From NCBI GenBank assembly GCA_022709525.1, contig JAKLIQ010000001.1, positions 146,679 to 210,678 on the forward strand: DNA of 64,000 bases, read 5' to 3'. The notes under the pieces were generated by a model. The model saw only the letters and a list, made by a program, of their open reading frames with translations. It made no database searches and had not been told where the DNA came from. The number at the start of each line of letters is the position of its first letter. Position 1 is the first letter of the stretch. The position numbers were made by a program, and so were the translations under genes. Positions 28,672 through 63,422 of this stretch are shown here, one piece after another. The DNA comes from Candidatus Omnitrophota bacterium. Lineage in GTDB: Bacteria; Omnitrophota; Omnitrophia; Omnitrophales; Aquincolibacteriaceae.

Positions 28672-28675
28672 GAGA

Positions 28676-34639: not shown

Positions 34640-34644
34640 TGTTC

Positions 34645-35766: not shown

Positions 35767-35796
35767 TCTTACAAGTATTTACCATCCTCAAAAGCC

Positions 35797-36473: not shown

Positions 36474-36887
36474 ATGAAAAAAGAAATTGGTTTTACGCTT
36501 TTGGAGATCATGGTCAGCATGGTAGTCCTGACCGTTGTGGCCGTAGGAGTGATCGGTACGGTTGCTTTTACAAAGCGGTCTGCGGCCGAAATGCAACAAC
36601 GGCTAAGCGCTATTGATCTCGCGGAAAAAAAGATCGCGGAGATTAAAACCCAAAAGATTGGCGCCATTCCCTTAACGCACGAAACCATTACCACCGCTTT
36701 TTCGGAGTTGTCTAGTGCTGTGATGGCCTATAAGGTCGAAAAGCTTGGCGTACCGTATCTTTTCAACGTCGAAATTGAAATACGTTGGGATTATGGCTGG
36801 CGGGACAAAGCAAATCCATGCGCAACAAATTGGGATTCTTGCGATAAAAAAATGATTTTACGCACAGTTTATTTTAGCCCGTCTTGA
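36474..36887 (+). CDS. minor pilin / pseudopilin
   Basis: MKKEIG|FTLLEIMVSMVVLTVVAV prepilin-type N-terminus. 137 aa. Confidence 0.6.
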   Translation: MKKEIGFTLLEIMVSMVVLTVVAVGVIGTVAFTKRSAAEMQQRLSAIDLAEKKIAEIKTQKIGAIPLTHETITTAFSELSSAVMAYKVEKLGVPYLFNVEIEIRWDYGWRDKANPCATNWDSCDKKMILRTVYFSPS

Positions 36888-36991
36888 AAAGGTATCGCAG
36901 TGAAGTTCGGAGGTTTTAAAAAAGGAGGTTAGCGATTAATTGCCTTGGTCGTTATCCCAATTTCGTTAAATCGGTTCACGGCTTAACTCTC

Positions 36992-41679: not shown

Positions 41680-42230
41680 TGGGGAAACGGGGCATAACAT
41701 TACTTGAGACCATCGTAACGTTGGTAATTATGGCGATTGGCGCCTCGATCGTTGTTCCTAAGATTCAACAAACCGCCGAAAACAAACGCGCTGACAGCGC
41801 GATTCAAAGCCTTCGGACGATTTCTCATTGTATGCGCCTCTATGCGCTGGAAAAAAATCTTGAAGTTTTTCAAAATACCTCCTCTGGCAGCTTATCAGCG
41901 CTTGAAAAGCTATCAACCATGCAAGGAGGGAGTGGTTGTTTTGACTATAATGCGCTTGAGCCAACCTATGATTTTTTTGCGAACAAAGATGCGAATAGCG
42001 ATGAATGGATCTCCTGGTATGGAACGGATTGGGGTAATTGGGTATCGCTTGTCGCGTGTGACAAAAAAAGCAAACGTGTAATTTTTTTGAGATTTGCGGG
42101 TGACCCTACGCGGGGTCTTTATTATGGAAGCGCCATTTTTGATTTTAAGGACACAGCGTGCCCGGATCCAAATTCAAACATTGCGCTTCCGTCAGATTTT
42201 AAAAATCTTGTCCGTAATATCCCAGAATGA
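41676..42230 (+). CDS. pseudopilin (GspG/H-like)
   Basis: MMGKRG|ITLLETIVTLVIMAIGASIVVP prepilin N-terminus. Overlaps the stop of the giant gene. Confidence 0.6.
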   Translation: MMGKRGITLLETIVTLVIMAIGASIVVPKIQQTAENKRADSAIQSLRTISHCMRLYALEKNLEVFQNTSSGSLSALEKLSTMQGGSGCFDYNALEPTYDFFANKDANSDEWISWYGTDWGNWVSLVACDKKSKRVIFLRFAGDPTRGLYYGSAIFDFKDTACPDPNSNIALPSDFKNLVRNIPE

Positions 42231-48398: not shown

Positions 48399-48449
48399 TC
48401 CTTTTTGAAATAATATCATTCGGAAGACCATAAGGGAGTTTGACTCAAG

Positions 48450-49871
48450 ATGAATATGCGAGACGAAGAAGACCGGGAAAGCGGGAAAACTCCGTTCAGG
48501 ATCAGAGCGCCGCATGACTCGCGGGTCAAGATGCCGTCCCCCATCCAGGATGGCGGCCCCGGGCCTTCCTTTTTCCACGGGAAAATGAAATTCATCATTA
48601 TCGCCGTTGTTTTGATCGGCCTTCTTTTTGGCGGAAAATACATTCTCAATCTTTTTAAAGGGTCCAAACCCTCTTTAAGCGAGACGATCAAGCAACAGCA
48701 GGAAGCCGCCAAGGACGCGCCGGTGGCCGTGAAGGGCTTCAAGGTCGGCCGTTTCAATTATGAAGATTCCATGAACGTTCTCGGGACGATCAAAGGGTCG
48801 GTCGAACTCAAACTAAGCTTTGAGATCCCGGGCGTGATCAGTTCCATCAACTACAAGGAAGGGGAACGCTACGAAGAGGGCGCCCTCCTTGTTTCCTTGA
48901 AGCAGGACGATATTCTCTTGCGCCTGAAACGCGCCCAGGCGGCTTTTAATAAAGCGGAGTCCCAGGCAAAAGTGACGGAAGCCGAGGTCGCGGAGAACGA
49001 AAAGCTGCTCAAAATGGGAGCGATCCCGCCTTCGACGCTTGAAAAGAAAAAGCTGGAAATGGATGCCGCCAAATACGAGGCCGAGGCGCAACGCCTTGAA
49101 ATGAAGGCGAACGAATCCATGCTTGAAAAGTCCAATCTTTACGCGCCGTCTTTAGGTATGCTGGGCGATGTCAACGTTGAAGAAGGGGAGAATATCAGCC
49201 AGAGCACGCTGATCGGGACCCACATCAACACCGAGTACGTCTACGCGGAATTCGGGATCGTGGAACGCGACGTCCAGAAGATCACGCTGGGGCAGAAGGC
49301 CAAGGTTTTCGTGGACGCCTATCCGGACAAGACCTTTGAGGGCGTGATCGAGAATATCGCGCCGCAGATCACAGGCACAAGCCGTACTTCGACCGCCAAG
49401 GTTCGTATCGAAAATCCCGAAGGACTGCTCATGCCCGGCATGTTCGCCCGCGTCAGGGTCATGCTTTATAGTAAAAAAGACGCGATCGTGGTGCCGACGG
49501 ACGCGGTCCAGGGCGGTGAAGGCGAAAAATTCGTTTATGTGGTCAAGTTGCCGGAAAGCGAGACACCCAAGGTCGAGCCCCGCATGGAAGGCGCCATGGG
49601 CGGGGGGCTGGGAGCGATGGCCGCGGCTTTGAAAAAGGACCAAGGCAAGGGCGATAAGAAATCCGGCAAACTCGCCGATGAGATCGACACCAAAAAGATC
49701 GAAGAAGGCACAGTCGAAAAACGTCCCGTGACCGTGGGCTATACGCGCACCGATTATTCCCAGATCGACGCGGGCCTCACCGAAGGAGAGATTGTGGTCA
49801 TGACGGGGTTCGAGAGATTGGAGGATGGAAAGAAGATCCGTTTGATCGAAACCCAAGAAGCCGAGCTCTAG
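48450..49871 (+). CDS. RND efflux periplasmic adaptor (membrane fusion protein)
   Basis: TM anchor, coiled-coil hairpin, lipoyl/beta-barrel domains and the HlyD_D23 pattern. The start may be internal (MKFIIIAVV at ~48585). Confidence 0.75.
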   Translation: MNMRDEEDRESGKTPFRIRAPHDSRVKMPSPIQDGGPGPSFFHGKMKFIIIAVVLIGLLFGGKYILNLFKGSKPSLSETIKQQQEAAKDAPVAVKGFKVGRFNYEDSMNVLGTIKGSVELKLSFEIPGVISSINYKEGERYEEGALLVSLKQDDILLRLKRAQAAFNKAESQAKVTEAEVAENEKLLKMGAIPPSTLEKKKLEMDAAKYEAEAQRLEMKANESMLEKSNLYAPSLGMLGDVNVEEGENISQSTLIGTHINTEYVYAEFGIVERDVQKITLGQKAKVFVDAYPDKTFEGVIENIAPQITGTSRTSTAKVRIENPEGLLMPGMFARVRVMLYSKKDAIVVPTDAVQGGEGEKFVYVVKLPESETPKVEPRMEGAMGGGLGAMAAALKKDQGKGDKKSGKLADEIDTKKIEEGTVEKRPVTVGYTRTDYSQIDAGLTEGEIVVMTGFERLEDGKKIRLIETQEAEL

Positions 49872-49874
49872 ACT

Positions 49875-52800
49875 ATGAGTCTTCCCGAATTTTCGATCAA
49901 GAAAAAAGTCACGATCTACATGTTCACGCTCGGGCTGGTCCTCCTGGGCGTTCTTTCTTTTAAGCGCCTCCCGCAGGACCTTTTTCCGCCGATCACATTC
50001 CCGCAGGTCACGATCGTGACCGACTACTCCAATGCCGCCCCCGAAGAGATCGAAACGCTCATTACGCGCGTGATCGAAGAGGCGATCGGTTCCGTGGCGG
50101 GCTTAAAACGCATCGAATCGGTTTCCCGCGAGGGCCGCAGCACCATCATGGCGTCCTTTAACTGGGGCCAGGATATCGATTTCGCCGCTCTCGCCATCCG
50201 CGAAAAAGTGGACCTCATCAAAGAAAGGCTTCCTAAAGAAGCCGATGACCCGGTCGTATTGAAATTCGACCCGCTTTCCCGTCCGATCCTCTTGCTTTCC
50301 GTGACCGCGCCGGAACTTCCGCCGGTCCGCATGAAGCTCCTCACCGAAAAAATGATCAAAGACCGCCTTGAAAAAGTGGAAGGGGTCGCCTCCGTTACTC
50401 TCTCGGGCGGCGTCAACCGCGAGATTTTAGTTGAGATCGACCAGCCGCGTCTTCAGGCCAACCATCTTTCGCTTCTCGAGGTCGTGGATTCGCTCGATGA
50501 AGCCAACATTTCTTATCCCGCGGGCAGCATCAAAAAAGGCCTTTACGAGTATCTGATCCGCACGGTGGGCGATTTCCGCTCGCCGGCCGAAATTGGTTAT
50601 GCGGTGGTAGGGGTCGATACGGTCGAAAAACTCCGGCGTGAAGAAACGAGTTTTGTCGAACGCGATACGAGCGAAGGCCCGCGTGAGACGATCGAGAAAC
50701 TCCGCGGCGAGGTCGAAAAACAGATGCTTGAAAAACGCCTGGTGACTGTCCGGGACATCGGCAAAGTCGTCGACGGCCTCGCGGAGACGACCAGCATTTC
50801 GCGCTATAACGGCGCCTCCAACATCTCGGTGGCCATTCAAAAACAATCGAATGCCAATACCATCCAGGTGGTGGACCTGCTGCGGAAGGAATTAAAGTTC
50901 CTGGAAGAAGATCTCCTGTCGCGCGGCCTTCAGGTCAAGATCATCTACGACCATTCAGTCTTTATCCGCAACACGATCCAGAACCTGGCGCATGAGGCCA
51001 TGCAGGGCGGTGTTCTGGCCCTCATCACGCTTTATATCTACTTGCGCGCTTTCGCGATGTCAGTCCTCGTGATCGTTTCGCTGCCGCTGACGATCCTGGG
51101 CGTTTTTTTCCTGATGGGTCTGGCGCATGTGACCGTCAACATCATGTCCCTGGGCGGCCTTGCGATCGCGATCGGCATGATCACCGATACCAGCATCGTG
51201 GTGTTGGAGAATATTTTCCGCAAACGCCAGGAAGGCGCGGACCCGGAACAAGGCGCCATCGACGGCGCCACGGAAGTCGTTTGGCCGGTCATTTCCTCAA
51301 ACCTGACCACGATCGCCGTGTTCTTTCCCTTGATCGTTTTTGTCCCGGGCGTCGCCGGCCAGATCTTCAAGGACCTCGCTTGGGCGATCATCTTTTCGCA
51401 GATCATTTCAACCTTCATCCCGCTGACGCTCGTGGCCATGCTTTCTACCTATGTGGGCATCAAGCAGCAAGAGTATAAACCTCTGAGTCTTACCGGGGAT
51501 CTTGATAAAAAGATCATGGAGATGCCGACCAAAGAGGCGCAGAACAGCTTTATGCTGGGGATCCTATTCACCGCGTTTTTGGCGCTTGCATCCACTTTCT
51601 TGCTCATTCCAACGATCGACCGTGAAGTTCTCCCTAAGGTCGATCAAGGGCAGTTCTACGTTAAAGTTGATATGCCGCTCGGGACCCGCTTGGGCGTGAC
51701 GGACGATATTTGTAAACGGCTCGAAGAGATGCTGCGTTCCGAAAAAGCCGTCCAGGATATTTCCGTTGCGATCGGAAGTGAAAAGACAAGCCGCGGCGAG
51801 ATCAAGATCGAAACTCTGCGCCCCTCCCAGGCGCTGATCCTTGTCACACTGGATAAGAAGAGAAAACAGCCCTCTTCGAAGATCGTGGCGGGCTTAACGA
51901 AAAAACTTGAAGCGCTGAACCTTGAAAGGGACGAAGCCAAAGTCGAGTTCGTCCTCCAGGAAAGCGAATTTTCGGTCGGAGCGGGAGGCCTCAAGCCGGT
52001 CCTGATCGAAGTCAAAGGGTACGATTTTACGATCATGGAGGACCTTGTGAAGCGTTTGAGAGAACGCTTGGCGCTGATCCCCGGCATCATCAATGTCCAG
52101 GATGATATCGGCGAAAAAACACCCGAGACCAAGCTCGAGATCAATAAAAAACGGGCGGCGCTTTACGGAATTTCCGCTTTGGATATTTCGCTGACGGCCA
52201 AGGCGGCCATTGAAGGCGTGGTCGCGACCCAATACAGGGAGGGCGGCCGCGAGATCGACGTGCGGGTCCGGTTGAGCGAAAAAGACAAGGAGAATATTTC
52301 GAACCTCGGGACGCTTTTGCTTTACTCCAAAGTCCTGGATGTGCATGTGCCTTTAAAAGAGCTTGCGGGCGTGGAGCGCGGCCGGGGCCCCAGCGAGATC
52401 AAGCGCATGGACCAGGAGCGCACCGTGACCATTTCCGCCGAGATCGACAAGACCCGGCAAGATAAGGATGTGCTAAAAGATGTTCAGAAATTCCTCTCGG
52501 GGCTCCGGATCCCCGACGATATCCCGCAGGATTTCCAGGTCCGTCTTTCCGGCAAGGCGAAAGAGATCCGCGAGAATTTTGGCGGTGTCATCTTCGCATT
52601 CGTGCTCGCCATCATGCTTGTTTATATGATCATGGCCGCGCAATTCGAATCTTTCCTCCAGCCCTTGATCATCATGGTGACCGTGCCGCTTTCTTTCGGC
52701 GGCGCGTTGATCGCGCTTAAGATCACCGGCACGACCTTCAACGTGATCTCGCTTCTCGGCCTTGTGCTTCTGGGTGGCGTGGTCGTCGGCAACGGGATCG

Positions 52801-53144
52801 TGCTGATGGAATATATCAACCAGCTCCGTTCGGAGGGGAAGGAAATGGTCGCCGCGGTCTGGGAAGCGGTGCGCACCCGAACGCGCCCCGTATTGATGTC
52901 ATCGACCACCACCATCATGGGTATGTTCCCGATCGCCCTCGGCCTCGGGGAAGGCGCCGGGCTTCTGTCGCCTCTGGCCGTGACGGCGATGGGCGGCCTT
53001 TTTTCCTCCACGGTACTTACCTTGATCGTGCTTCCGTGTTTTTATATCGTCGTCAACCGGTTCTTGGAGAAATATCTCGGTTATGAAGAAGAGACCCAGG
53101 AACAAGAAGAAGAGCAAGAAGACACCGAAACGCCTCCGGCCTGA
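49875..53144 (+). CDS. RND efflux transporter permease (AcrB/HAE1-like)
   Basis: 1089 aa with 12 TM segments and two large periplasmic loops, and AcrB-family similarity throughout. Confidence 0.9.
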   Translation: MSLPEFSIKKKVTIYMFTLGLVLLGVLSFKRLPQDLFPPITFPQVTIVTDYSNAAPEEIETLITRVIEEAIGSVAGLKRIESVSREGRSTIMASFNWGQDIDFAALAIREKVDLIKERLPKEADDPVVLKFDPLSRPILLLSVTAPELPPVRMKLLTEKMIKDRLEKVEGVASVTLSGGVNREILVEIDQPRLQANHLSLLEVVDSLDEANISYPAGSIKKGLYEYLIRTVGDFRSPAEIGYAVVGVDTVEKLRREETSFVERDTSEGPRETIEKLRGEVEKQMLEKRLVTVRDIGKVVDGLAETTSISRYNGASNISVAIQKQSNANTIQVVDLLRKELKFLEEDLLSRGLQVKIIYDHSVFIRNTIQNLAHEAMQGGVLALITLYIYLRAFAMSVLVIVSLPLTILGVFFLMGLAHVTVNIMSLGGLAIAIGMITDTSIVVLENIFRKRQEGADPEQGAIDGATEVVWPVISSNLTTIAVFFPLIVFVPGVAGQIFKDLAWAIIFSQIISTFIPLTLVAMLSTYVGIKQQEYKPLSLTGDLDKKIMEMPTKEAQNSFMLGILFTAFLALASTFLLIPTIDREVLPKVDQGQFYVKVDMPLGTRLGVTDDICKRLEEMLRSEKAVQDISVAIGSEKTSRGEIKIETLRPSQALILVTLDKKRKQPSSKIVAGLTKKLEALNLERDEAKVEFVLQESEFSVGAGGLKPVLIEVKGYDFTIMEDLVKRLRERLALIPGIINVQDDIGEKTPETKLEINKKRAALYGISALDISLTAKAAIEGVVATQYREGGREIDVRVRLSEKDKENISNLGTLLLYSKVLDVHVPLKELAGVERGRGPSEIKRMDQERTVTISAEIDKTRQDKDVLKDVQKFLSGLRIPDDIPQDFQVRLSGKAKEIRENFGGVIFAFVLAIMLVYMIMAAQFESFLQPLIIMVTVPLSFGGALIALKITGTTFNVISLLGLVLLGGVVVGNGIVLMEYINQLRSEGKEMVAAVWEAVRTRTRPVLMSSTTTIMGMFPIALGLGEGAGLLSPLAVTAMGGLFSSTVLTLIVLPCFYIVVNRFLEKYLGYEEETQEQEEEQEDTETPPA

Positions 53145-53146
53145 TC

Positions 53147-56100
53147 ATGGGACTCCCTAGTTTCGCACTCAAACGTCCGGTCATGACCGCCATTCTTTTC
53201 GCCGCGGTCATCGTGATCGGCATTATCTCTCTTATGCGCCTGAAGGTCGAACTTTACCAGGGCCAGAGCCAGGGCATTATTTCCATCGTGGTGCGCGCCC
53301 GCGGCGGCCTTCCTTCCCAGGATGTCGAAAAGATGATCACCAAACCCATCGAAGAAGCGATCGGGACCGTGAGCCGCATGAAGAACCTCTACTCGAGCTC
53401 CCGCGAAGCCGAGTCCCGCGTGACGATGGAATTCGAGCCGGGGACGAACATGAAATTTGCCGCGCTGGAGGTCCGCGAGAAGTTCGCGCGCGTCAAACCG
53501 CTTCTTCCCAAAGAGATCGAAAAACCCGTGATCGCCAATTATGACGACGCGCAGGCCGCCATCATGGTGTTTGCGGTGACCTCGGAGAGCATGTCCCCGG
53601 AGGATATCCGCGAGCTCGTGGATATCAAACTGAAACCGGTCTTAAGCCGCGTGGACGGCGTCGCGAGCGTCGAGGTTTATGGCGGCCGCGAGCGGAAGAT
53701 CCTTGTGGAGCTCGACCGGGACAAGATGGTGTCTTACAACATCGCGATCGAACGCGTGATGGACGTGCTGGGCCAAAGCAACGTGAACCTTCTGGCCGGG
53801 AACGTGGAGACCGGGAAATTCGCGTTCGCGGTCCGCAGCATGGGTTCCTTCCTCACGGTCGACGAGGTAGGGGATATCGGCATGAAAGCCACCCGGCAGG
53901 GTTCCATCATCGCACTTAAAGAGATCGGGACTGTGAAAGATTCCTATCTCGAGGCGACCGACCAGGCGCGGCTGAATCTGGAGCAGAACGTGACGGTCTA
54001 TGTGAAAAAAGCGAGCATGGCCAACACGCTTGAGGTCGCCGATGATCTTAACAAAGTGCTTGATGCCTTCGAAGTCGATCACAAGGGCGAGCTGAAGATC
54101 GTGATCGTCAACGACCGGGCGGATACGATCAGCCGGGCGATCGGGGACGTCAAAGGCGCGCTTTTTGTCGGGTTGATCCTGACAATGGGCGTGATCTATG
54201 CGTTTATCCGGAAAAGAATCCTTTCGGCGATCATTCTCGTGGTCATTCCGTGCTCCCTGGTCGCCACGTTCATCTTTATGGCGGCCTGCAATATCAGCAT
54301 CAATGTCATGACCTTAAGCGGGCTTTCCCTGGCGACCGGCATTCTGGTCGATACGGCCGTCGTGATCATGGAGAATATTTCCTCCAAAAAAGAACACGGC
54401 CTCGGGGACACGCTTGCCATCCGCGAGGGAAGCGAGGAGGTGTGGCTCCCGCTTTTGGCTTCCATGGTCACCACGCTCGTGGTATTCCTGCCGATCGTGC
54501 TCTCGGATAAAACGATCCAGTTGACGTACGGCGGGTTCGCTTTCACGATCGCCGTGTCCCTGATCTGCTCCTTTTTCTCCGCCCTTATGCTGATCCCCAT
54601 GCTGATCCGGCAATTCGCCCGTTCCGAGCTTAATGATAAACGCGAGCATTCCTCGGGAAAATTCATCGAACGGATCAAAAACCGCTATGCCCGCGCGATC
54701 CTGTGGACGCTCCGCCGCCGGTGGCGCGTTCTTTTGATAACGACAGTTCTTTGCTGCTTTTCGATCTGGATGCTCAGCCGCACGCCGATCGACTGGCCGT
54801 CATCGTTTGAGGAGAACGAATTCGCGGTCGTGACCTTCCCCTTGGCCGGCGCGCGCTTGGAGTCCAACGATGAAGCCATGGCTAAGATCGAGGAGATCCT
54901 CTCCAAGATCCCCGACATCACGCTTTTTTCGACGACGGTCTCCAAGGATGACCTCCGGCTTTTTGTGCGCCTGAAACCGTCCCGCCAGCGGCAGTATTCC
55001 AAGGACGAGATCATGAAGATTATCGACGAGCAGGGGAACGCGGCCATCAAAGAGATCCATAGCGACTATAGTCTGATCGTCGACGAGGGCGCCGGTTCTT
55101 CCGAGCAGAAAAAACTTGTCGTGAATATCTACGGGCAGGACGGCGATGAACTTGAAAAACTCGCCAAGGAATTTGCCAACAAGATGTCCAAAGTGGACGG
55201 TTTAAGCAACCTGGTCATGACCGACCTTCGCAAGCGGCCCGAATACTCGCTTGTGGTGGATAAAGGCAAAGCGGCCATGTACGGATTGAGCGTCAAGACG
55301 GTTGCCGACAGCATGCATGCCCAGGTCCGCGGCATGCGTCCCACGAAATTCCACGAACTTTCCAAAGGAGAAGAGATCGAGACCATCACGCGCCTCCAGG
55401 CGATCTACCGCCAGAAACTTGAGGATCTCGGCCAGATCTACGTCCAGACCCAGGAGGCGAAGCAGGTGCCTTTAAGCGAGATCGCGAATTTTTACCCTTC
55501 GACAGGCCCGCAGACGATCGACCGGAAAGACAAACACCGTTATGTTTTCGTTAAAGGAGACACCAAAAAGCCGATCGAAAAGATCGCGGCTGACGTTAAG
55601 GATGCTCTCAAGGACGTAAAACTCCCCGACGATTATTACTGGCGCTTCGGCGGCGGTTTTGAAGAACTGATGAAAAGCAAAACCGAGCTTGGTTTTGCGG
55701 TGATCCTTACGGTCTTTTTAGTCTACATGGTCATGGCATGCCTTTATCAAAGTTATCTTTACCCCTTGTTGATCATGGCGACCGTTCCGATGGCGGCGAC
55801 GGGTATTTGGCTGGCTTTAGGATGGTCCGCCTTTTTTATAAAACCCCTTACATTTCTCGGTGTTCCGGCGAATTGGGTTGCATGGATCCCGGCCCCCAAA
55901 CCGTTGAGCACGCAAGTCTTTATCGGCATTATCTTATTAGCGGGCTATGTCGTGAACGCCGCCATCATTTTAGTCGATCACCTGACCCACCTTGATCCCC
56001 AAAAACCCATGGAGCAACGGCTGGTGGAAGCGGCCCTGGACCGTTTGAGGCCGATCATGATGACGGTCACTTCCACGGTGCTCGGGTTCTTGCCAATGGC

Positions 56101-56317
56101 GCTTAGTTTCGGGCAGGCGAGCGACCTCTGGTCGCCGCTCGCAATTACGGTGATCGGCGGCTTGATCAGTTCGACTTTGTTAACGCTCTTTGTCCTGCCG
56201 TGTCTTATCATGGCGGCCGAGGACGTTAAGGCCTGGATGAAAGGCGATTCCGGGGTTCCAACGCCGCATTTTTTTCAGCGTTTATTCATAAAACCCAAAG
56301 GGCCGCTTTCTATATGA
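53147..56317 (+). CDS. RND efflux transporter permease, second paralog
   Basis: 1056 aa with AcrB-family topology. Tandem with the preceding RND gene. Confidence 0.9.
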   Translation: MGLPSFALKRPVMTAILFAAVIVIGIISLMRLKVELYQGQSQGIISIVVRARGGLPSQDVEKMITKPIEEAIGTVSRMKNLYSSSREAESRVTMEFEPGTNMKFAALEVREKFARVKPLLPKEIEKPVIANYDDAQAAIMVFAVTSESMSPEDIRELVDIKLKPVLSRVDGVASVEVYGGRERKILVELDRDKMVSYNIAIERVMDVLGQSNVNLLAGNVETGKFAFAVRSMGSFLTVDEVGDIGMKATRQGSIIALKEIGTVKDSYLEATDQARLNLEQNVTVYVKKASMANTLEVADDLNKVLDAFEVDHKGELKIVIVNDRADTISRAIGDVKGALFVGLILTMGVIYAFIRKRILSAIILVVIPCSLVATFIFMAACNISINVMTLSGLSLATGILVDTAVVIMENISSKKEHGLGDTLAIREGSEEVWLPLLASMVTTLVVFLPIVLSDKTIQLTYGGFAFTIAVSLICSFFSALMLIPMLIRQFARSELNDKREHSSGKFIERIKNRYARAILWTLRRRWRVLLITTVLCCFSIWMLSRTPIDWPSSFEENEFAVVTFPLAGARLESNDEAMAKIEEILSKIPDITLFSTTVSKDDLRLFVRLKPSRQRQYSKDEIMKIIDEQGNAAIKEIHSDYSLIVDEGAGSSEQKKLVVNIYGQDGDELEKLAKEFANKMSKVDGLSNLVMTDLRKRPEYSLVVDKGKAAMYGLSVKTVADSMHAQVRGMRPTKFHELSKGEEIETITRLQAIYRQKLEDLGQIYVQTQEAKQVPLSEIANFYPSTGPQTIDRKDKHRYVFVKGDTKKPIEKIAADVKDALKDVKLPDDYYWRFGGGFEELMKSKTELGFAVILTVFLVYMVMACLYQSYLYPLLIMATVPMAATGIWLALGWSAFFIKPLTFLGVPANWVAWIPAPKPLSTQVFIGIILLAGYVVNAAIILVDHLTHLDPQKPMEQRLVEAALDRLRPIMMTVTSTVLGFLPMALSFGQASDLWSPLAITVIGGLISSTLLTLFVLPCLIMAAEDVKAWMKGDSGVPTPHFFQRLFIKPKGPLSI

Positions 56318-56377: not shown

Positions 56378-56980
56378 ATGGATATCCACGCCAACAACGT
56401 ACAGGTCAAGGCGCCGGCGGGTCAACGCCCTTATAAGCGCCAGGTAAAGAACATCATCATCCACCGCCCGATGCAGCGGGAATTTTCCTTCATGCTCATC
56501 GCTCTTTTCATGGTGGCTGCAGGAGCCGTGGCCTGGGTCATTCACCAGACGATCCGCGACGCGGCCTTCGGAGGAGCGCTCTATTTCGGGAAAGTGAATC
56601 CCTTTGAGGTCCTTTCCGATGTGAGTTACCGCATCATCATCCGGGTCACGCTGGTCCTGATCCTCACGCTCATTATCATCGGGGCCTACGGCGTGGTTTT
56701 CCTTCACCGGGTCGCCGGTCCTGTCTACCGTTTCCGTCAAACGCTTTTGAAAGTGAACCGCGGGGAGCTGCCCCACGATATCAAGATCCGCGAAGGGGAC
56801 TTCTTTCATGACATGGCGCATGATATCAATATCATTTTAAGGCGTCTGCGCGTTGAACATGAAAAGCTCGCGGAATTACGGTCAAAACTTACCGACCTGC
56901 AGCGCAATGCCGCTTCCGAAGAGGCCCGGCAACGCGCGGAAGAAATGAAAACGGTCCTTGATTCCTTTTCCAAGATCTGA
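56378..56980 (+). CDS. small membrane protein with HAMP-like domain and coiled coil
   Basis: Two TM helices, then a HAMP-like segment (VAGPVYRFRQTLLKVNRGELPHDIKIREGDFFHDMAHDINII), then coiled coil. No output domain. Confidence 0.45.
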   Translation: MDIHANNVQVKAPAGQRPYKRQVKNIIIHRPMQREFSFMLIALFMVAAGAVAWVIHQTIRDAAFGGALYFGKVNPFEVLSDVSYRIIIRVTLVLILTLIIIGAYGVVFLHRVAGPVYRFRQTLLKVNRGELPHDIKIREGDFFHDMAHDINIILRRLRVEHEKLAELRSKLTDLQRNAASEEARQRAEEMKTVLDSFSKI

Positions 56981-57140: not shown

Positions 57141-57193
57141 TCGAAGTGACCCTCGCCAATCAGTATCATTTCACGGAAAGGAGCAACAAAAAA

Positions 57194-57796
57194 ATGAAGA
57201 AGTTCAACATCGGTTTGACGTTAGCGCTCGTTGCGTTGATGGTTGTTGGCTTTGGAGTCGCGGCTTATGCGGCTTCCGCAAACGAGTTAGTGATCGCAGA
57301 TTTTGACACCGGGGATAAGCCGAACAATATCGGCGGCGATTTCGGTGGATGGGACAAGGACCCGAATGATGAATCACAAGGGTGCCAGATGTCCTTCGAT
57401 ACGGATGATAGCCAAGGAGACGCAGCCGGCTATTCGATCCGCCTCGATTATGATGTGGATTCTCCGAACCCCGCGTATAACGGTTTCTGGATGAAGCTGA
57501 ACGGCGAGGATGCAACCCCTTACAACACCCTGAATTTCTACGTCAAGGGTGATGCCAAGGCCGGCTACACCAAGCGCTTCAAGATCGAGCTCAAGGACAT
57601 GACGAACAAGCCTTCCGCTTATATCGTGAGCGGCGTCACGGATCAGTGGCAGAAGATCTCGATCCCGTTCGAGAAGTTCCGTCGTATTGAGAACTGGAAC
57701 GCCTTGAACGAGTTCGTCATCGTTTTCGACGATATCAACTCCAGCCCGAAGACCGGCAGCATTTTGATCGACCAGGTGACGTTCTCCAAGCAATAA
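57194..57796 (+). CDS. secreted protein with carbohydrate-binding-module-like (CenC/CBM4_9-like) beta-sandwich domain
   Basis: Signal peptide (MKKFNIGLTLALVALMVVGFGVAAYAASA), a Gly/Asp-rich region, and a pattern reminiscent of CBM/galactose-binding-like domains. The functional assignment is tentative. Confidence 0.4.
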   Translation: MKKFNIGLTLALVALMVVGFGVAAYAASANELVIADFDTGDKPNNIGGDFGGWDKDPNDESQGCQMSFDTDDSQGDAAGYSIRLDYDVDSPNPAYNGFWMKLNGEDATPYNTLNFYVKGDAKAGYTKRFKIELKDMTNKPSAYIVSGVTDQWQKISIPFEKFRRIENWNALNEFVIVFDDINSSPKTGSILIDQVTFSKQ

Positions 57797-57829
57797 GCAA
57801 CGCGTTACCGGGAAAGTCGTTAGTTCCAA

Positions 57830-57865
57830 CAGCCCCGCTTCAAAAAAGCGGGGCTGTTGTTTTTT
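57830..57865 (+). terminator. intrinsic terminator
   Basis: cagccccgctt-caaaaaa-gcggggctg is a hairpin followed by ttgttttttt. Confidence 0.7.
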
Positions 57866-57974
57866 AGGGCCAGACCGTCCTCCGCAGGGGAGCGCGTCCG
57901 GCCCTTTTTCTTCCCCAGAGTTAAAAGATCCCTCATTCCGGCCGATAATCCTTAGGAAAGGGCGAAGACCGTCT

Positions 57975-59561
57975 ATGGACTATCCGGAAGGGGAATTTGT
58001 CATTTCGACGAGCCGCGTCCTGCCCGCCAAGCGCTGGCAGGTCCTGCGTCTTTTTACCAAGGTCGAAGACTATCCGGGCTATCTTCCGGAGATCAAGGAA
58101 TGCCGCGTCCTCTCCCGGAGCCGCACTGAAGCCGTGACCCTCTGGAAGGTCGAGATGGGAAAAGTGCCCATCTCCTGGCAGGAAAAGGACACCCTCGACA
58201 TCCACCAAAGCAATATCGACCTGCGCCGCGCCGCGATCCGCTTCAAGGCGATCGACGGCGATCTGGAAAAATTCGAGGGGTACTGGGCTTTCCAGGAACA
58301 TAAGCTGGGCGGCACGGAGGTTTTCTTCAAAGCGGCGATCAAGATCGGGATCCCGATCCTTGAGCAGGCGATGGGCGGCTTCTTGTCCGAAAAGATCCTG
58401 CATTATTTCGAGCGGCTGCTGACGGTTTTTGAGGAGATCCTTACCGCGCAGAATTACGAACAGCGGGGCGCGCGTCATGTCCACCCGGTGGGCGGGTTCG
58501 GCGTGATCGGCCACCCCTATAATTACCAGCATCTGATCCATTATTTCCAGTCCTCTAAAAAGGACATGCACCTTCCGTCCCCGGAATTCCTGACGAAACT
58601 TTTTGAGCTGACACCCTCCTATGTCTCCTACGACATCAACGAGTTCCACGCCAGGAGCGGCAAATCAACCTACGGTTCTTTTATCGCCTGCAACATCATC
58701 CCGGAAATGCTTACGGCGGATATCAGCAAGGTGATCGACAAAGTGGTTGAATCCTGCAAGGTCGCCGAAAAACTCGGCCTCGGCATTGTGGCCCTCGGCG
58801 GTTTTACCTCGATCGCGGGCGAACGGGGCGGCGACGAATTCTTAAAACGTATCCATGTCCCGGTCACGACGGGCAATACGCTGACGGCCGCACTGGCCGT
58901 CGAAGGAGTCCTTAAGGCGGCCGAACTCCGGGAGTTGGATCTTTCGAAAGCCAAAGTCGCCGTGATCGGCGGGGCGGGGGATATCGGAAGTGCCTGTGTG
59001 AGGGCCCTCGCCGAAAAAACCGCGGAGATCATCGTCACAAGCCGAAGCGACGAAAATCTGGCGCGGGTCCGGAAAATGCTGGAGGGCTACCCGGCCAAAT
59101 TCTCCGGGATGAAGGACAACAACGAAGCGGTCCGGGACGCGGATATCGTGATCGCCGCGGCAAGCGTGGCGCATTCGATCGTGGATATCGCCAATTTTAA
59201 ATCCGGCGCCATCATTTGTGATATCGGTTACCCCAAAAATATCGCTTATAGCGACACCGACCGCCGGGACATCCTGATTTTCGCCGGCGGGATCTGTTCG
59301 CTCCCTCAGGAATTCAATGCCGGTTTTGACATCGGCCTTCCGTCCCCGAAGGTGCTTTACGGCTGTTTTTCGGAGGCGATCGTGCTCGCCCTTGAAGAAC
59401 GTTATGAGAATTTTTCGTGGGGCAAGGGGCATATCACCAAAGAGAAAATGGCCGAGATCCTTAAGCTGGCGCGCAAGCACGGATTCGAGCTCGCGCCTTT
59501 TTTCTGGGGCCGCCGCTTGGTAACAGATGAAGAAGTGCGGGGAATTAGAATCAAGACATGA
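57975..59561 (+). CDS. SRPBCC (START/Bet v1-like) domain fused to acyl-ACP reductase (AAR-like, fatty-aldehyde-forming) domain
   Basis: N-terminal ~150 aa have a polyketide-cyclase/SRPBCC pattern. C-terminal ~370 aa align with the cyanobacterial acyl-ACP reductase motif by motif: GFGVIGHPYNYQHL, IVALGGFTSIAGERG, TGNTLTAALAV...KVAVIGGAGDIGSACVRAL, ICDIGYPKNI and ENFSWGKGHITKEKMAEILKLARKHGFE. Confidence 0.6.
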   Translation: MDYPEGEFVISTSRVLPAKRWQVLRLFTKVEDYPGYLPEIKECRVLSRSRTEAVTLWKVEMGKVPISWQEKDTLDIHQSNIDLRRAAIRFKAIDGDLEKFEGYWAFQEHKLGGTEVFFKAAIKIGIPILEQAMGGFLSEKILHYFERLLTVFEEILTAQNYEQRGARHVHPVGGFGVIGHPYNYQHLIHYFQSSKKDMHLPSPEFLTKLFELTPSYVSYDINEFHARSGKSTYGSFIACNIIPEMLTADISKVIDKVVESCKVAEKLGLGIVALGGFTSIAGERGGDEFLKRIHVPVTTGNTLTAALAVEGVLKAAELRELDLSKAKVAVIGGAGDIGSACVRALAEKTAEIIVTSRSDENLARVRKMLEGYPAKFSGMKDNNEAVRDADIVIAAASVAHSIVDIANFKSGAIICDIGYPKNIAYSDTDRRDILIFAGGICSLPQEFNAGFDIGLPSPKVLYGCFSEAIVLALEERYENFSWGKGHITKEKMAEILKLARKHGFELAPFFWGRRLVTDEEVRGIRIKT

Positions 59562-59664
59562 GACGAGAGACCGCAGACCACAGACTAGAAACTTCGGGGT
59601 TCCGATGGCGCTTTTCTTTTTGCTCCAGTCTCAAGTCCCCAGTCTTCGGTCCTCGTAGGTTCCT

Positions 59665-61968
59665 ATGACGACACTGATCCGCGCGTTTGAGTTCAACGGA
59701 TACGCCGTTCCCGTGCTGGCGGTCGGGATCCTGATGCTTCTGATCGGGATCTTTATTTTTCTCCAGAACAAGCGCTCCCGCGTCAATTTTTCGTTCTTCC
59801 TGATCGGCTTTTGCGGTTTTCTCTGGTTCCTCGGGATCGCCGGTACTTACGCGGCCAGCACGCCCGAAACCGCGCTTTTCATGTACCGGACCGTAACATT
59901 CCTGGGCGTCGCGCTGATCGCGCCCTGCACCCATTATTTTTCCGCGACATGGCTCGGCCTTTTCAAGAAACAAAAGCTTGCGATCCGCACGGGGCTTTTC
60001 TTCGGCGCGGCTTTTTACATCGTCGGGCTTTTTTCCCCACGAAGTTTCACGGGCGTCTACCATTATTTTTGGGGTTATTACCCGATGTACGGCCCGCTCA
60101 ACCGTTATTTCCTGGGGCTTTTTTTTCTGGTCCTTGCATGCGCATTCTTTAATTTCTTCAGCGCTCTCCTGAAAGAGCCTAAGGGGGTCCGGCGGACGCA
60201 GATCGGCCTTATCACGCTCGGTTTTCTCGTGGCGTTCCTGGGATCGTTCGATTATCTTCCGAAGTTCGTTTATTACCCCGTCCTACCGCTCGGTTTTCTG
60301 GCTGTTTTTTTCTGGATCCTTGTGGTCGCCTACGCGATCATCCGCTACAAAGCGATGGATATCGAAACGGTCATCCACAAAACCCTCATGTGGCTGGCCA
60401 CGACCGTCGTGGCGGTCATTCCGTTCGCGGCATTCATCTACTGGACCCAGCGCCTCCGCGATCCTTTGTCGGCTTGGGGCGCGACCGTCTATTACCTCGC
60501 CGTCGCGGTGGCTTTTTATTTCTATTTTCAGGCCATTCAGCCCCGTCTGGACTATCTTTTCCAGCGTCAGAGACGGAACCTTTTCGCGGTCATGGAGAAA
60601 TTTTCCCAGGAACTTGTCCACCTGAAAAGCCTCCGCGACCTGTTGCAGGGGTTCGCGCGCATGCTCCGCCGCCAGCTTTTTGTCCGCCGTCTTTCGGTTT
60701 TTTTGCTGGATGAAAAAAACAACGAATACATTCCCGCCATCGCCAAAGGGTTGCGCAGCCTTAAGCCTTTCCCTCAAAATCACCCGTTTTTAGCCTGGCT
60801 TGAGGAAAAAGATAGAGTCGTCATGAGCCACCTCGTCGGCGCGGACCCCGAGGTCGAAACCTTCAGGGCCGAGATCGAGCAGTTCTTCCGCCAGACGCAG
60901 GGATCCGTGGCCGTGCCGCTTGTCCTGGGCGGTAAGATGATCGGCGTGGTGAGTCTCGGCCGGAAAACCAACCTGAAGCCCTACCGCTCGGCCGAGATCC
61001 AGTTCCTGGCGCAACTCAAGATCCCGGTCACGATCGCCTTCTCGAATTCCATGCGGTATGAGAATATCAGCGAACTTTATACGCAAGTCCGCAAAATGAG
61101 CGAGGAACTCAAGCGGTGGAATGTGGAGCTGGAAAAGCGCGTCGTGGACCGGACGCGGGAACTCGTCAAGACACAGGAGCAGTTGACGCAGGCCGAGAAG
61201 CTCGCGACCTTGGGCACGCTCGCCGGCGGCGTGGCGCATGAGATCAATAACCCGCTCACCGCGGTCCTCACGAACGCCCAGATCCTCAAGATGACGGCCA
61301 CCGGGGATGTCAAAGAATCGCTCGATCTGATCGAGGAGGGCGCGAAGCGGTGCCAGGGGATCGTGCAGAAGCTCATGAAATACGCGCGCAAGACGGCAGA
61401 GGAAACGCCGCATAAGGATGTCGATCTGCGCGAGGTGATCCTGGGGACTTGCGCGCTTTTAAGCTTCCAGTTCCAGCAGGAAAATATCGAGGTCGAGTTG
61501 AAGCTCGCGGAAGTGCCGCCCGTCCAGGGGATCGCGGGTGAGCTTGAGCAAGTACTGATGAATCTTCTTGTGAACGCCCGTGATGCGATACAAGAGGGAA
61601 AGGTAAAAGGCAAGCCCAATTCTCTATTAAAAGATTCAAAGGTCAATTGGACTAGCCCTGGCAACCTTCGAGGAGAAGAAAATAGATGCCAGGGCAAGAT
61701 CACGGTTGAAACGCGCAAAACCCCGGCCGCGGTCGAACTTTCCGTCACTGATAACGGGATCGGGATCTCCAAAGAGCATCAGAAAAAGATCTTTGACCCC
61801 TTCTTCACCACCAAAGATGTCGGTTCAGGGACCGGCTTGGGTCTCGCCGTCAGTTTCGGTATTCTCAAGCGTCACAACGCCACGATCAGCGTTGCTTCGG
61901 CCCCCGGCAAGGGCGCGGCGTTCACCGTCAGCTTCCCATTGAGCCACACTCACAAAACCAAACCATGA
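59665..61968 (+). CDS. sensor histidine kinase (multi-TM N-terminal sensor, GAF-like, HisKA, HATPase_c) with ~30-aa insertion in the ATP-lid region
   Basis: About 7 TM helices. H-box (AHEINNPLTAV), N-box (LVNARDA), G1 (DNGIGI) and G2 (GTGLGLAV). Between the N-box and G1 there is an extra segment (KVKGKPNSLLKDSKVNWTSPGNLRGEENRCQ), AT-rich at the DNA level, containing a 9-bp inverted repeat. Confidence 0.8.
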   Translation: MTTLIRAFEFNGYAVPVLAVGILMLLIGIFIFLQNKRSRVNFSFFLIGFCGFLWFLGIAGTYAASTPETALFMYRTVTFLGVALIAPCTHYFSATWLGLFKKQKLAIRTGLFFGAAFYIVGLFSPRSFTGVYHYFWGYYPMYGPLNRYFLGLFFLVLACAFFNFFSALLKEPKGVRRTQIGLITLGFLVAFLGSFDYLPKFVYYPVLPLGFLAVFFWILVVAYAIIRYKAMDIETVIHKTLMWLATTVVAVIPFAAFIYWTQRLRDPLSAWGATVYYLAVAVAFYFYFQAIQPRLDYLFQRQRRNLFAVMEKFSQELVHLKSLRDLLQGFARMLRRQLFVRRLSVFLLDEKNNEYIPAIAKGLRSLKPFPQNHPFLAWLEEKDRVVMSHLVGADPEVETFRAEIEQFFRQTQGSVAVPLVLGGKMIGVVSLGRKTNLKPYRSAEIQFLAQLKIPVTIAFSNSMRYENISELYTQVRKMSEELKRWNVELEKRVVDRTRELVKTQEQLTQAEKLATLGTLAGGVAHEINNPLTAVLTNAQILKMTATGDVKESLDLIEEGAKRCQGIVQKLMKYARKTAEETPHKDVDLREVILGTCALLSFQFQQENIEVELKLAEVPPVQGIAGELEQVLMNLLVNARDAIQEGKVKGKPNSLLKDSKVNWTSPGNLRGEENRCQGKITVETRKTPAAVELSVTDNGIGISKEHQKKIFDPFFTTKDVGSGTGLGLAVSFGILKRHNATISVASAPGKGAAFTVSFPLSHTHKTKP

Positions 61969-63422
61969 ACCCCTATAATTTTTCTGTTCTCTGCTTTGGA
62001 TTTTGTTCCCTTCTTTTAGGGTTTTTTGTGTGGTGGAAGCGGCAAGACAGGATCGGAAAATTATATTTCATATTGTCCTTATGTTATGCGGGCTGGGCCT
62101 TACCGTTTTCCATTAAAATAAGCGATAACATTTCCTACTATGCGGCGCTTCATGCGGCCAGGATCGCAAATTGCGCCGCAGCATTTATTCCCGCTGCCTG
62201 GTTCCATTTTTGCGTGGTTTATACCGAAAAAGAAAAAATTCTGCATAAACTGATCCGGATCTTTTATCTCATACCTTTTCTCATCCTCGCTGTTTCTTAT
62301 ACGCCCTGGTTTGTACCAAGCCTAAGGCCGATCCTTAGCTTTAGACATTATGCGACACCCGGCATTTTTTATTATCTGATGACGTTTAATTATTTCTTGA
62401 TCACTCCTCTGGGTTTTTGGCTTCTGGTAAGAAGAATCAGAGAAGTATCGGGGAACGAAAAAGGGCAGATCCTGGGGCTTTTTTGGGCGGCTTTCGCCGG
62501 CTATTTAGGAGGAGCGACGACTTTTTTGCCGATCTACGGAATAGCGTTTCCTCAAGAGGGTATGTTCCTTCTTCCGCTCTATCCCTTCGCGCTGGCTTAT
62601 TTCATGACCAAGCAAAAACTTTTTGATGTCGAGGAGTTCGCCCAAGCGGCGCACCGGGACAAGCTCACGGCGATCGGGGTCCTGGCGGCCAGTATCAATC
62701 ATGAGGTCAAAAACCCCTTATTCATTATCAAAGGCCTTGCGGAAAGCTGCCTGGAGCGTCAGAGAGAAGGAGTTTTTCCGACCAAAGAAAAAGCCCTTGA
62801 TGGCGCCAATGAAGCGTTCAAACGGACCATGGAACAGGCCGATCGGGCCATGGATATTATTAAGCGCCTGTCACTTTTTGCGAAAGCGGGGATCGAAAGC
62901 GAGATCAAACTCGAACCGGTTAAAGTTTCGGCGGTTTTAGAAGACATCCTTCCGCTCCTCCGCTATGAGCTTGCCGCTCATGGCATTACCCTTATCCGGG
63001 ACCTCCCTCCCAACCTCCCCGAAGTCCAGGCCGACCGGAGATACCTTGAAGAGATCTTTTTTAATTTGATCTTCAACGCCTGTCAGGCGTTAAAAGACGC
63101 AAACAAACCAGGCGAGATCATTATTAGGGCAGTCGCGAGCAACGCACCCCGTACACACCCGGTGTGTACATTGGTGGACACACCGGGTGTGTACAAGGGT
63201 TCGGTCGTTATTGAAATCTCTGACAACGGCCCAGGGATCCCGGGAGATAAGCTTAAAGACGTCTTCCGTCCTTTCTATACCACCAAAGCCGAAGGCACCG
63301 GTCTGGGCCTCTACATCACCCAGCAGCTGGTCGAAAAGATCAAAGGACGTATTTCCGTTAGTTCCGAGGCCGGTAAAAATACAACCTTTACAGTTTCGCT
63401 TCCTTCGAGCCCCAAGACATGA
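61965..63422 (+). CDS. sensor histidine kinase paralog 2 (7TM sensor, HisKA, HATPase_c) carrying an in-frame palindromic element
   Basis: ATGA overlap with the upstream kinase. H-box (INHEVKNPLFII), N-box (IFNACQA), G1 (DNGPGI) and G2 (GTGLGLYI). The palindromic repeat at 63151-63194 encodes RTHPVCTLVDTPGVY in the ATP-lid region. The 5' part is AT-rich. Confidence 0.8.
   Translation: MNPYNFSVLCFGFCSLLLGFFVWWKRQDRIGKLYFILSLCYAGWALPFSIKISDNISYYAALHAARIANCAAAFIPAAWFHFCVVYTEKEKILHKLIRIFYLIPFLILAVSYTPWFVPSLRPILSFRHYATPGIFYYLMTFNYFLITPLGFWLLVRRIREVSGNEKGQILGLFWAAFAGYLGGATTFLPIYGIAFPQEGMFLLPLYPFALAYFMTKQKLFDVEEFAQAAHRDKLTAIGVLAASINHEVKNPLFIIKGLAESCLERQREGVFPTKEKALDGANEAFKRTMEQADRAMDIIKRLSLFAKAGIESEIKLEPVKVSAVLEDILPLLRYELAAHGITLIRDLPPNLPEVQADRRYLEEIFFNLIFNACQALKDANKPGEIIIRAVASNAPRTHPVCTLVDTPGVYKGSVVIEISDNGPGIPGDKLKDVFRPFYTTKAEGTGLGLYITQQLVEKIKGRISVSSEAGKNTTFTVSLPSSPKT
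63151..63194. repeat. palindromic element (RPE-like), intragenic in-frame copy
   Basis: gtacacacccggtgtgtaca-ttggtg-gacacaccgggtgtgtac. It shares the 17-nt core cacacccggtgtgtaca and its reverse complement with the intergenic copy at 20228-20265. Confidence 0.65.

Follow-up and report, generated by a model that had tools for sequence, protein, structure and literature searches.

The 64-kb stretch of contig JAKLIQ010000001.1 of a Candidatus Omnitrophota bacterium (64,000 nucleotides, hereafter the window) carries at 57975..59561 on the forward strand (+) a single uninterrupted open reading frame (ORF), initiated at an ATG, that encodes a complete protein of 528 amino acids (aa). In this protein an N-terminal SRPBCC domain is joined to a thioester reductase that has the fold of the cyanobacterial acyl-ACP reductase (AAR, where ACP stands for acyl carrier protein). 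The gene is followed on the same strand by two membrane histidine kinases. An earlier note on the same DNA had recognised this fusion, and had read its C-terminal part as matching, motif by motif, the AAR of the cyanobacterial alkane pathway. Related loci and proteins are designated below by L and P numbers, respectively.

The integrity of the gene is supported by the ORF list and by public data, in which an identical 528-aa protein (P0001) is present. As this protein and about 120 full-length homologues (48-85% identity) keep the same start and architecture, the fusion was considered as real, and a frameshift between the two domains or an assembly artefact was ruled out. Hundreds of homologues keep it and, wherever their source is named, it is Candidatus Omnitrophota, the phylum of the present organism, which bears out the non-cyanobacterial setting proposed in the note. 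The AlphaFold2 (AF2) model of the protein, built on 55 family members (predicted local distance difference test, pLDDT, 89; predicted template modelling score, pTM, 0.85), is consistent with a defined two-domain arrangement. The protein is named “SRPBCC family protein” at NCBI, and some of its database homologues are named “long-chain acyl-ACP reductase”. No curated family model covers it as a whole, and in the literature search AAR homologues were not linked with SRPBCC, with Omnitrophota or with a polyketide cyclase fusion. A second 528-aa ORF of the window (13557-15143) was considered as a possible paralogue and rejected, being an unrelated D-3-phosphoglycerate dehydrogenase. The fusion is not the oddity of a single genome but one of the forms taken by an older partnership between SRPBCC and reductase, encoded elsewhere by two adjacent genes.

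Domains of the fusion protein

The N-terminal half (aa 8-162, 57996..58460, +) was assigned to the SRPBCC helix-grip domains of the Coq10/RatA/Polyketide_cyc type using both profile and structural searches. It matches PF03364 (Polyketide_cyc) over aa 17-139 (E = 7e-16, 59 bits for a Pfam cutoff of 23.4 bits), and DSSP applied to the AF2 model gives the helix-grip order beta-alpha-alpha-beta6-alpha, a helix of 36 residues (aa 127-162) closing the domain and leading into the reductase. Foldseek superimposes this half of the model on TTHA0849 (PDB 2d4r) with a template modelling score (TM) of 0.88. The SRPBCC call of the earlier note is correct on both counts. Ten residues are invariant among the 55 family members (R25, W57, W68, F90, G95, D96, G102, W104, G125 and P127) and, because these invariants are its own, the SRPBCC half is considered to be under purifying selection and to be functional rather than a relic. 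Four of them (G95, D96, G102 and W104) fall within the motif IDGDLEKFEGYW (aa 93-104, 58251..58286, +), the counterpart of which, EGDxxxLEGxW, is carried by separately encoded SRPBCC partners at L028 and L030. The conserved aromatic residues of the domain (W21, W57, W68, F90, W104 and F145) fit a predicted cavity for a hydrophobic ligand.

Compared with SRPBCC proteins of the Coq10/RatA/TTHA0849 type, the domain shares the PF03364 match above threshold, the TTHA0849 fold and a weak match to the RatA model (25 bits), but it is fused to, or in an operon with, an AAR-like reductase and has invariants of its own (R25, W57, W68, D96 and W104). Identity with the RatA/PasT toxin was rejected (NF007999 equivalog, 25.1 bits for a cutoff of 258 bits). 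Coq10 is considered to act as a chaperone for hydrophobic ubiquinone, a role of the kind proposed here for the SRPBCC domain. This domain might instead be catalytic, as a cyclase or dehydratase acting on a carrier-bound beta-keto chain ahead of its reductive release, in the manner of the aromatase/cyclases (ARO/CYC) of type II polyketide synthases (PKS), or regulatory, as a ligand-sensing switch resembling PYR/PYL that gates the reductase. The invariant polar residues R25 and D96, which stand amid an otherwise aromatic set, would suit such a role, as would the additional Foldseek matches to WhiE-ORFVI, ZhuI and TcmN (TM 0.7-0.8) and to PYL receptors, and the thiolase genes and receiver (REC)-ketosynthase genes found in a few loci. 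However, identity to ARO/CYC is only 12-17% and the closest structure is that of TTHA0849, a protein deposited as hypothetical; the sequence model is the Coq10/RatA-type PF03364; and no ketosynthase, alone or paired with a chain length factor (KS-CLF), and no ACP were found in the window, ketosynthases being present in only 2 of the 21 loci. A catalytic or regulatory SRPBCC domain was given a low probability.

The reductase (aa 173-523, 58491..59543, +) consists of N-terminal, Rossmann and C-terminal sub-domains. Its residues 175-505 align with positions 2-335 of the 339 positions of the acyl-ACP reductase profile TIGR04058 (E = 3e-49), and the model of the PigE N-terminal reductase gives E = 2e-49. 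Among PDB entries, matches were obtained with the Synechococcus AAR (SeAAR; 6jzq, E = 1e-34) and with PigE (4ppm, E = 5e-30), and Foldseek aligns the AF2 model with SeAAR (6jzy_A) at TM 0.84 and 30% identity over 356 columns. The C-terminal part groups with AAR and PigE and with no other Rossmann family, and calling it an AAR homologue was justified.

Residue roles were taken from the AAR structure paper and from a review (PMC7089970, PMC9743570), and were scored across 119 fusions. Cys294 of SeAAR, the catalytic nucleophile that forms the acyl-enzyme (PMC7089970, PMC9743570), corresponds to Cys464 (codon at 59364..59366, +) in the motif YGCFSEA, at the start of a helix of the C-terminal sub-domain. 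This residue is present in 119/119 fusions and in 121 of 122 stand-alone relatives, and aligns with the Cys of PigE as well. The dinucleotide-binding loop GGAGDIG (aa 332-338, 58968..58988, +) corresponds to the SeAAR motif 162-GATGDIG-168 (PMC7089970), with the positions G, G, D, I and G invariant in all the fusions. Glu297 is found as E467, invariant in all 278 aligned domains, and Tyr247, which lines the acyl tunnel and contacts NADPH, is found as Y419 (112 Tyr and 7 Phe in the fusions). In the 2'-phosphate pocket, R189 is retained as R357 (118/119 fusions) and R314 is represented by K484 (Lys in 105 fusions, Arg in 14), whereas R193 is lost (N361 in the window, Asn or Ser across the fusions). 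By alignment, the catalytic machinery for the reduction of a thioester to an aldehyde is present in the fusion. Besides the three-sub-domain fold, the protein has in common with SeAAR (EC 1.2.1.80; PDB 6JZQ, 6JZU and 6JZY) the nucleophilic Cys, the GxxGxxG loop, the residues Tyr247 and Glu297, and two basic residues out of three in the phosphate pocket, and its chemistry is likely to be that of AAR, i.e. conversion of a thioester to an aldehyde by a ping-pong mechanism (PMC7089970).

Relation to the alkane-pathway reductase

The match to the alkane-pathway AAR claimed in the earlier note stands as far as homology and catalytic motifs are concerned, but not as an identification of the enzyme. 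The TIGR04058 score is 168 bits for an equivalog cutoff of 449.7 bits, the same as the score obtained with the PigE N-terminal thioester-reductase domain (168.9 bits), and the protein is regarded as a member of the AAR superfamily rather than as an AAR orthologue. An exhaustive search with the reductase domain retrieved 1,762 cluster representatives at E ≤ 1e-10, mostly stand-alone proteins of 350-380 aa. All 150 representatives among the matches listed score at least 152 bits, compared with about 123 bits for SeAAR, and SeAAR is more distant from the window reductase than are 150 or more non-cyanobacterial representatives. In a neighbour-joining (NJ) tree of the aligned domains, a clade that unites all Omnitrophota fusions and leaves SeAAR and PigE outside was obtained in 99 of 100 bootstrap replicates, and the deep order of fusions, SRPBCC-partnered stand-alone reductases and SeAAR was weakly supported (25/100 and 3/100). 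By distance in the reductase-domain alignment, the nearest neighbours of SeAAR are the SRPBCC-partnered P0126 cluster. Together with the gap at the R118 segment in most stand-alone relatives (see below), this hints at a replacement, in cyanobacteria, of an SRPBCC partner of AAR by the aldehyde-deformylating oxygenase (ADO), for which the bootstrap support of the deep order is too weak.

The residues of AAR on which ADO docks are R73, R79, K80 and R118 (PMC7089970, PMC9743570). The equivalent of the docking helix that bears the first three lies at 58719..58742 (+), and reads D249 ... D255-K256 in the window. K80 is conserved (K256, Lys in 119/119 fusions). R73 is replaced by D249 (Asp in 75, Ser in 22, Asn in 12 and Lys in 5 of the 119 fusions) and R79 by D255, at a position that is variable across the fusions (Glu in 35, Arg in 19, Gln in 17, Lys in 13). 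The segment of R118 is deleted, with a gap in 119/119 fusions and in 108 of the 122 stand-alone relatives. Three of the four docking residues are lost in the fusion, and with them, as judged from the alignment, the ADO interface. No member of the ADO family was found among the tested ORFs of at least 150 aa of the window, nor among the Pfam matches listed for L001-L004 and L024-L034; the absence of ADO near the fusion, which the earlier note had reported, was confirmed for these tested ORFs.

A true alkane-pathway AAR with its ADO partner encoded elsewhere in the genome would agree with AAR being the best PDB and fold match, and with the name given to some database homologues. This explanation has against it the score, less than half of the cutoff, the exclusion of SeAAR from the fusion clade, the loss of R73 and R118 together with an R79 position that is not conserved and is acidic in the window, and the lack of ADO in the ORFs and Pfam lists searched. 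In addition, ADO requires O2, and Omnitrophota are reported mainly from anoxic habitats. It was considered as extremely improbable. The protein encoded at 2798-3484 was rightly described as AOX-like (alternative oxidase; PF01786, 32.2 bits for a cutoff of 22.7 bits). This di-iron protein comes from a phylum whose reported habitats are mainly anoxic, and its gene lies about 1.3 kb downstream of a B12-binding radical SAM gene (135-1457).

Unlike AAR, the fusion has an N-terminal SRPBCC domain, a linkage to kinases, an Omnitrophota host and no ADO found in the window. PigE, to which TamH is related, keeps the catalytic Cys and provides a precedent for fusing the reductase to a domain that receives the aldehyde (PMC8341465). 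The partner domain of PigE is a C-terminal aminotransferase dependent on pyridoxal phosphate (PLP), whereas that of the window protein is an N-terminal lipid-binding fold of non-enzymatic appearance, and in the NJ tree PigE and the fusions lie on opposite sides. The next-best structural match after AAR is the terminal amidation domain (TAD) of CarI (PDB 9E4S and others), known from lines of PKS and nonribosomal peptide synthetases (NRPS). Its substrates are thioesters of carrier proteins, and a Cys is invariant at the position that corresponds to Cys464 (bioRxiv 10.1101/2024.10.28.620694). TAD is only 17-18% identical to the fusion, binds NAD and not NADP, is embedded in NRPS modules, and is proposed to perform an amidation. 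The fusion is a member of the AAR/PigE/TAD superfamily of Cys-dependent, thioester-processing Rossmann enzymes (COG5322-type).

Kinase linkage, split forms and gene neighbourhood

The most consistent partner of the fusion is a histidine kinase with a seven-transmembrane (7TM) sensor region, with or without GAF domain, located immediately downstream; the earlier description of the neighbourhood was right about ADO but overlooked this gene. In the window, kinase 1 (767 aa, HisKA_7TM - GAF - HisKA - HATPase_c, 59665..61968, +) starts 103 nt downstream of the fusion, and kinase 2 (485 aa, HisKA_7TM - HisKA - HATPase_c, 61965..63422, +) overlaps it by 4 nt. According to Pfam, these kinases have the 7TM region as their only sensor region, without periplasmic domain. 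Sequence scans detected a strong terminator-like hairpin (14-bp stem with 9 G-C pairs, followed by a T tail; 57827..57859, +) after the CBM11-like gene upstream of the fusion, and a promoter-like site before the fusion ATG (TTAAAA-17-GATAAT, a weak consensus match of 9/12; 57921..57949, +). Between fusion and kinase (103 nt, 59562-59664) the scans gave no terminator-like site. The fusion gene appears to be the first of a transcription unit that continues into the two HisKA_7TM kinase genes.

A HisKA_7TM kinase follows the fusion in each of the 19 informative Omnitrophota-type loci, as the first downstream gene in 11, as the second in 7 (after a gene for an 885-aa protein) and as the third in 1, with gaps that are often of -11 to +6 nt. 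The fusion itself is also present at L005 (tblastn). For the divergent fusions, a HisKA_7TM kinase lies within two genes in four of the five loci (L025, L026, L033 and L034), the fifth (L024) ending too early to be informative. The kinases beside fusions that are only about 30-33% identical align end to end with kinase 1 (E = 6e-59 for L033, E = 1e-52 for L026). From these gene orders, the enzyme-kinase pairing is deemed near-invariant down to about 30% identity and, because it persists that far, the lipid product is probably either what the membrane kinases sense or what they control.

Five of the closest stand-alone relatives of the reductase (38-44% identity) were sampled for partners, and in all five loci a separate SRPBCC gene adjoins the reductase gene or lies one gene off. 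It is directly upstream at L028 (6-nt gap), L030 (2-nt gap), L031 and L032 (4-nt overlap in both), and one gene away in the Desulfobacterales locus L027. Homology of the split SRPBCC proteins with the domain of the fusion was established by tblastn (against window positions 57996-58454, E = 1e-15 to 4e-20), and the same SRPBCC subtype is found fused to reductases just 30-36% identical to that of the window; the partnership is considered ancient and to predate the fusion. L028, which also contains a FadL channel, looks like an Omnitrophota relative in which the module is still split, because it shares with the window a CBM11-like neighbour (64% identity) and 7TM kinases. An ORF of predicted 8,849 aa begins at L028:14303, just downstream of this split module and of the kinases.

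Four of the split pairs are accompanied by an enzyme of about 590 aa dependent on thiamine diphosphate (ThDP) and similar to acetohydroxyacid synthase (AHAS) (L028:9123-10901, L030:8113-9873, L031:4725-6536 and L032:4772-6547). These acetolactate-synthase-like proteins score 357-392 bits, well under the AHAS equivalog cutoffs, and are 33-41% identical to one another. L031 additionally has histidine kinases. A dedicated substrate supply is encoded in two of the loci, by a fatty acyl-AMP ligase (FAAL) and an ACP in L032 and by an AMP-binding enzyme and an ACP in L027, where a glucose-methanol-choline (GMC) oxidoreductase and an efflux pump are also found. The ThDP enzyme together with FAAL and ACP in L032 suggests a pathway from fatty aldehyde to acyloin. 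In prodigiosin biosynthesis PigE acts after the ThDP enzyme PigD, which recalls the ThDP enzymes beside the split relatives.

Two further architectures of the module were observed. P0145 (L025:1083-3251) and P0180 contain four domains in the order HTH_17, PilZ, SRPBCC and AAR-like reductase, PilZ and HTH_17 adding a receptor for cyclic di-GMP and a DNA-binding domain, respectively; at L025 the fusion gene is followed by a GMC oxidoreductase gene and a 7TM kinase gene. P0194, P0196, P0236, P0247, P0250, P0254, P0259, P0261 and P0267 are AAR-like proteins of about 690-830 aa, with an N-terminal extension of about 300-350 aa that is not SRPBCC (no Pfam match for the extensions of P0194 and P0259).

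A more specific physiological version of the kinase coupling, compatible with the thioester-to-aldehyde chemistry, would be that of a signal synthase and its receptor. A membrane-soluble lipid aldehyde, or an acyloin where a ThDP carboligase is present, would act as an autoinducer or interaction signal sensed by the 7TM(-GAF) kinases. The near-invariant adjacency with often overlapping genes and the 7TM-only sensor regions would fit this, as would the linked regulators (single-domain REC proteins, a REC-nucleotide cyclase in L033 and REC-ketosynthases in L001 and L020), the PilZ and helix-turn-helix (HTH) domains added to some fusions, and the carboligase of the split relatives, which with an aldehyde acceptor would give an alpha-hydroxyketone. 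Acyloins are of the same chemical class as the signals CAI-1 and LAI-1. The alpha-hydroxyketone quorum-sensing systems CqsA/CqsS and LqsA/LqsS also place the synthase of a lipid-derived signal beside a polytopic membrane histidine kinase, but this is an analogy only: their synthase is a PLP-dependent acyl-CoA transferase unrelated to AAR, whereas the window enzyme is AAR-like and not PLP-dependent. A CqsS-like identity of the kinases was rejected, as they match generic kinase-core models only. Against the signal explanation, no ligand of a HisKA_7TM kinase was described in the literature searched, where just two papers name this domain, the gene is followed by 2-4 kinase paralogues and not by a single cognate receptor, the adjacency fits equally well a regulation of the operon by the kinases, and the carboligase was not found in the window. 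We regard it as rather unlikely. Also unlikely, by a slightly wider margin of doubt, is its extension to a lipid-signal synthase/receptor system of Omnitrophota and of the metagenomic lineages with divergent fusions, in which SRPBCC would ferry the aldehyde, the 7TM kinases would detect it in the membrane, and REC-only, REC-cyclase and REC-ketosynthase proteins would be the outputs. Such a system could serve in cell-cell or predator/host sensing in these ultra-small bacteria, the equation of the product with the 7TM kinase ligand being speculative.

The 885-aa protein is encoded after the fusion in 8 of 21 related loci (L001:11654-14314, and also L003, L006, L007, L011, L012, L020 and L022), and its family appears to be restricted to Omnitrophota. 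Its N-terminal domain is a short-chain dehydrogenase/reductase (SDR) that resembles reductases of carbonyls and thioesters, namely Gox2253 (34% identity) and cinnamoyl-CoA reductase. Its C-terminal part of about 490 aa is an orphan domain with an invariant H-x3-D-G-V-P motif, for which no relative was detectable, even by profile search. H-x3-D-G is typical of the CAT, condensation and WS/DGAT acyltransferases. This protein bears on the fatty alcohol or wax synthesis suggested in the earlier note, and more generally on the synthesis of structural lipids, in which the aldehyde would be converted to fatty alcohol and then to wax-ester-like or ether lipids of the envelope, with export by the resistance-nodulation-division (RND) pump. 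PlsC-type acyltransferases directly upstream of the fusion in L012 and L024, and recurrent RND/MMPL-like pumps and FadL channels, point in the same direction. However, the HxxxDG domain is a putative acyltransferase by its motif only; neither the 885-aa gene, nor a PlsC-type gene, nor FadL was found in the window; these partners are lineage-specific while the kinase link is general; and no lipid data on Omnitrophota were found in the literature search, a Black Sea lipid paper that mentions the phylum being uninformative. Structural lipid synthesis was therefore considered as doubtful overall, the wax suggestion keeping some plausibility for the lineages that have the 885-aa gene.

The gene order around the fusion is: HTH regulator, outer membrane efflux protein (OEP), membrane fusion protein (MFP), two RND subunits, 200-aa membrane protein, CBM11-like protein, fusion, 7TM-GAF kinase and 7TM kinase. 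The efflux module (46464..56317, +; Pfam and synteny) comprises OEP (46464-48398), MFP (48450-49871) and the two RND subunits (49875-53144 and 53147-56317). It is tied to the fusion only in nearer relatives, and an OEP-MFP-RND set also flanks the split module of the Desulfobacterales locus L027. The 200-aa membrane protein “small1” (56378..56980, +), located between the pump and the CBM11-like gene, occurs in 9 loci, among near relatives; it has no Pfam match and matches weakly the model of methyl-accepting chemotaxis proteins (MCP, chemoreceptors). The CBM11-like protein (216 aa, 57146..57796, +; PF03425, 24 bits, below cutoff) is secreted or membrane-anchored, and in 14 loci its gene precedes that of the fusion. 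Between loci its identity is 64-78%, compared with about 40-50% for the fusion at these loci, and it so seems to be under much stronger constraint.

The other partners are lineage-specific: RND pump, FadL channels, PlsC-type acyltransferases (L012 and L024), thiolase, REC-ketosynthase fusions (L001 and L020) and GMC oxidoreductase (L025 and L027). Of these, only the pump occurs in the window, where no wax synthase, aldehyde or alcohol dehydrogenase, 885-aa protein, thiolase, REC-ketosynthase, c9 or c11 homologue was found, and no ThDP enzyme, GMC oxidoreductase, FAAL, ACP, FadL or PlsC-type acyltransferase either. In L001 (19556-21235) and L020 (18018-19265), REC domains are fused to a beta-ketoacyl synthase (ketoacyl-synt N and C) with kinases upstream, which is an unusual two-component output. 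Elsewhere in the window, a cluster resembling type II secretion systems (T2SS) and type IV pili (T4P) was found at 27163-42230 (PilM-like protein, T2SSM, secretin, T2SSE ATPase, T2SSF and several N-methyl pseudopilins), inside which a 1333-aa ORF (37678-41679) has no Pfam match.

Predicted reaction and significance

The reading that we favour, with slightly better than even confidence, is that of a reductase that turns a thioester into a hydrophobic aldehyde, hands this product to its own SRPBCC domain, and is coupled in some manner to the kinases. As a member of the AAR/PigE superfamily, the gene product would depend on Cys and NAD(P)H to reduce an acyl thioester, either acyl-ACP or acyl-CoA, and would release a free hydrophobic aldehyde, following the ping-pong mechanism of AAR: the acyl group would move from the carrier thioester to Cys464, and hydride would be delivered by the nucleotide bound at GGAGDIG. 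The SRPBCC cavity would then receive the insoluble aldehyde, shield it and pass it on. Delivery of the acyl chain to the enzyme by the SRPBCC domain is a less likely alternative. In the characterised relatives the aldehyde is passed on via an exit tunnel, from AAR to ADO, from PigE to its aminotransferase domain and from GluTR to GSAM (PMC8341465; see also PMC7089970, PMC9743570 for precedents of hand-off). Since all these relatives hand the aldehyde to a partner, the simplest reading by analogy is that SRPBCC would be the receiver in the present clade. The aldehyde would subsequently go to lineage-specific enzymes or to the membrane: in the split forms, to the AHAS-like ThDP carboligase, which would give an acyloin; in some Omnitrophota, to the SDR and HxxxDG-motif protein or to a PlsC-type acyltransferase; in the window, nothing is linked that would take this step.

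Several points weigh against this reading. The biochemistry of the clade is deduced from homology, and carriers are not the only kind of SRPBCC protein, as some are enzymes (aromatase/cyclases) and others receptors (PYL). With a score so far under the AAR equivalog cutoff, the substrate and even the product could differ, and the related TAD domain is proposed to amidate and not to reduce (bioRxiv 10.1101/2024.10.28.620694). The loss of one of the three 2'-phosphate-binding arginines (R193, replaced by Asn or Ser) makes the cofactor preference uncertain. The window is without any candidate downstream enzyme. Finally, a gene order shared by members of one phylum can reflect common descent and not function, but the kinase link is found in the deep branches as well.

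The present assignment corrects a mis-annotation, as neither “long-chain acyl-ACP reductase” nor “SRPBCC family protein” captures the fusion. It would also extend the pattern known from AAR, PigE and GluTR, in which enzymes making reactive, insoluble aldehydes carry a dedicated receiver, here an SRPBCC domain, either fused or encoded alongside. AAR aggregates readily and long-chain aldehydes are insoluble (PMC9743570); if the proposed role is true, an SRPBCC partner that removes the aldehyde could aid product hand-off in engineered AAR pathways. Because the fusion is so stably paired with HisKA_7TM kinases, its product class is a candidate ligand for the sensor domain of these kinases and gives experimental access to it, and the module as a whole provides a first testable lead into the specialised lipid or signal chemistry of Omnitrophota.

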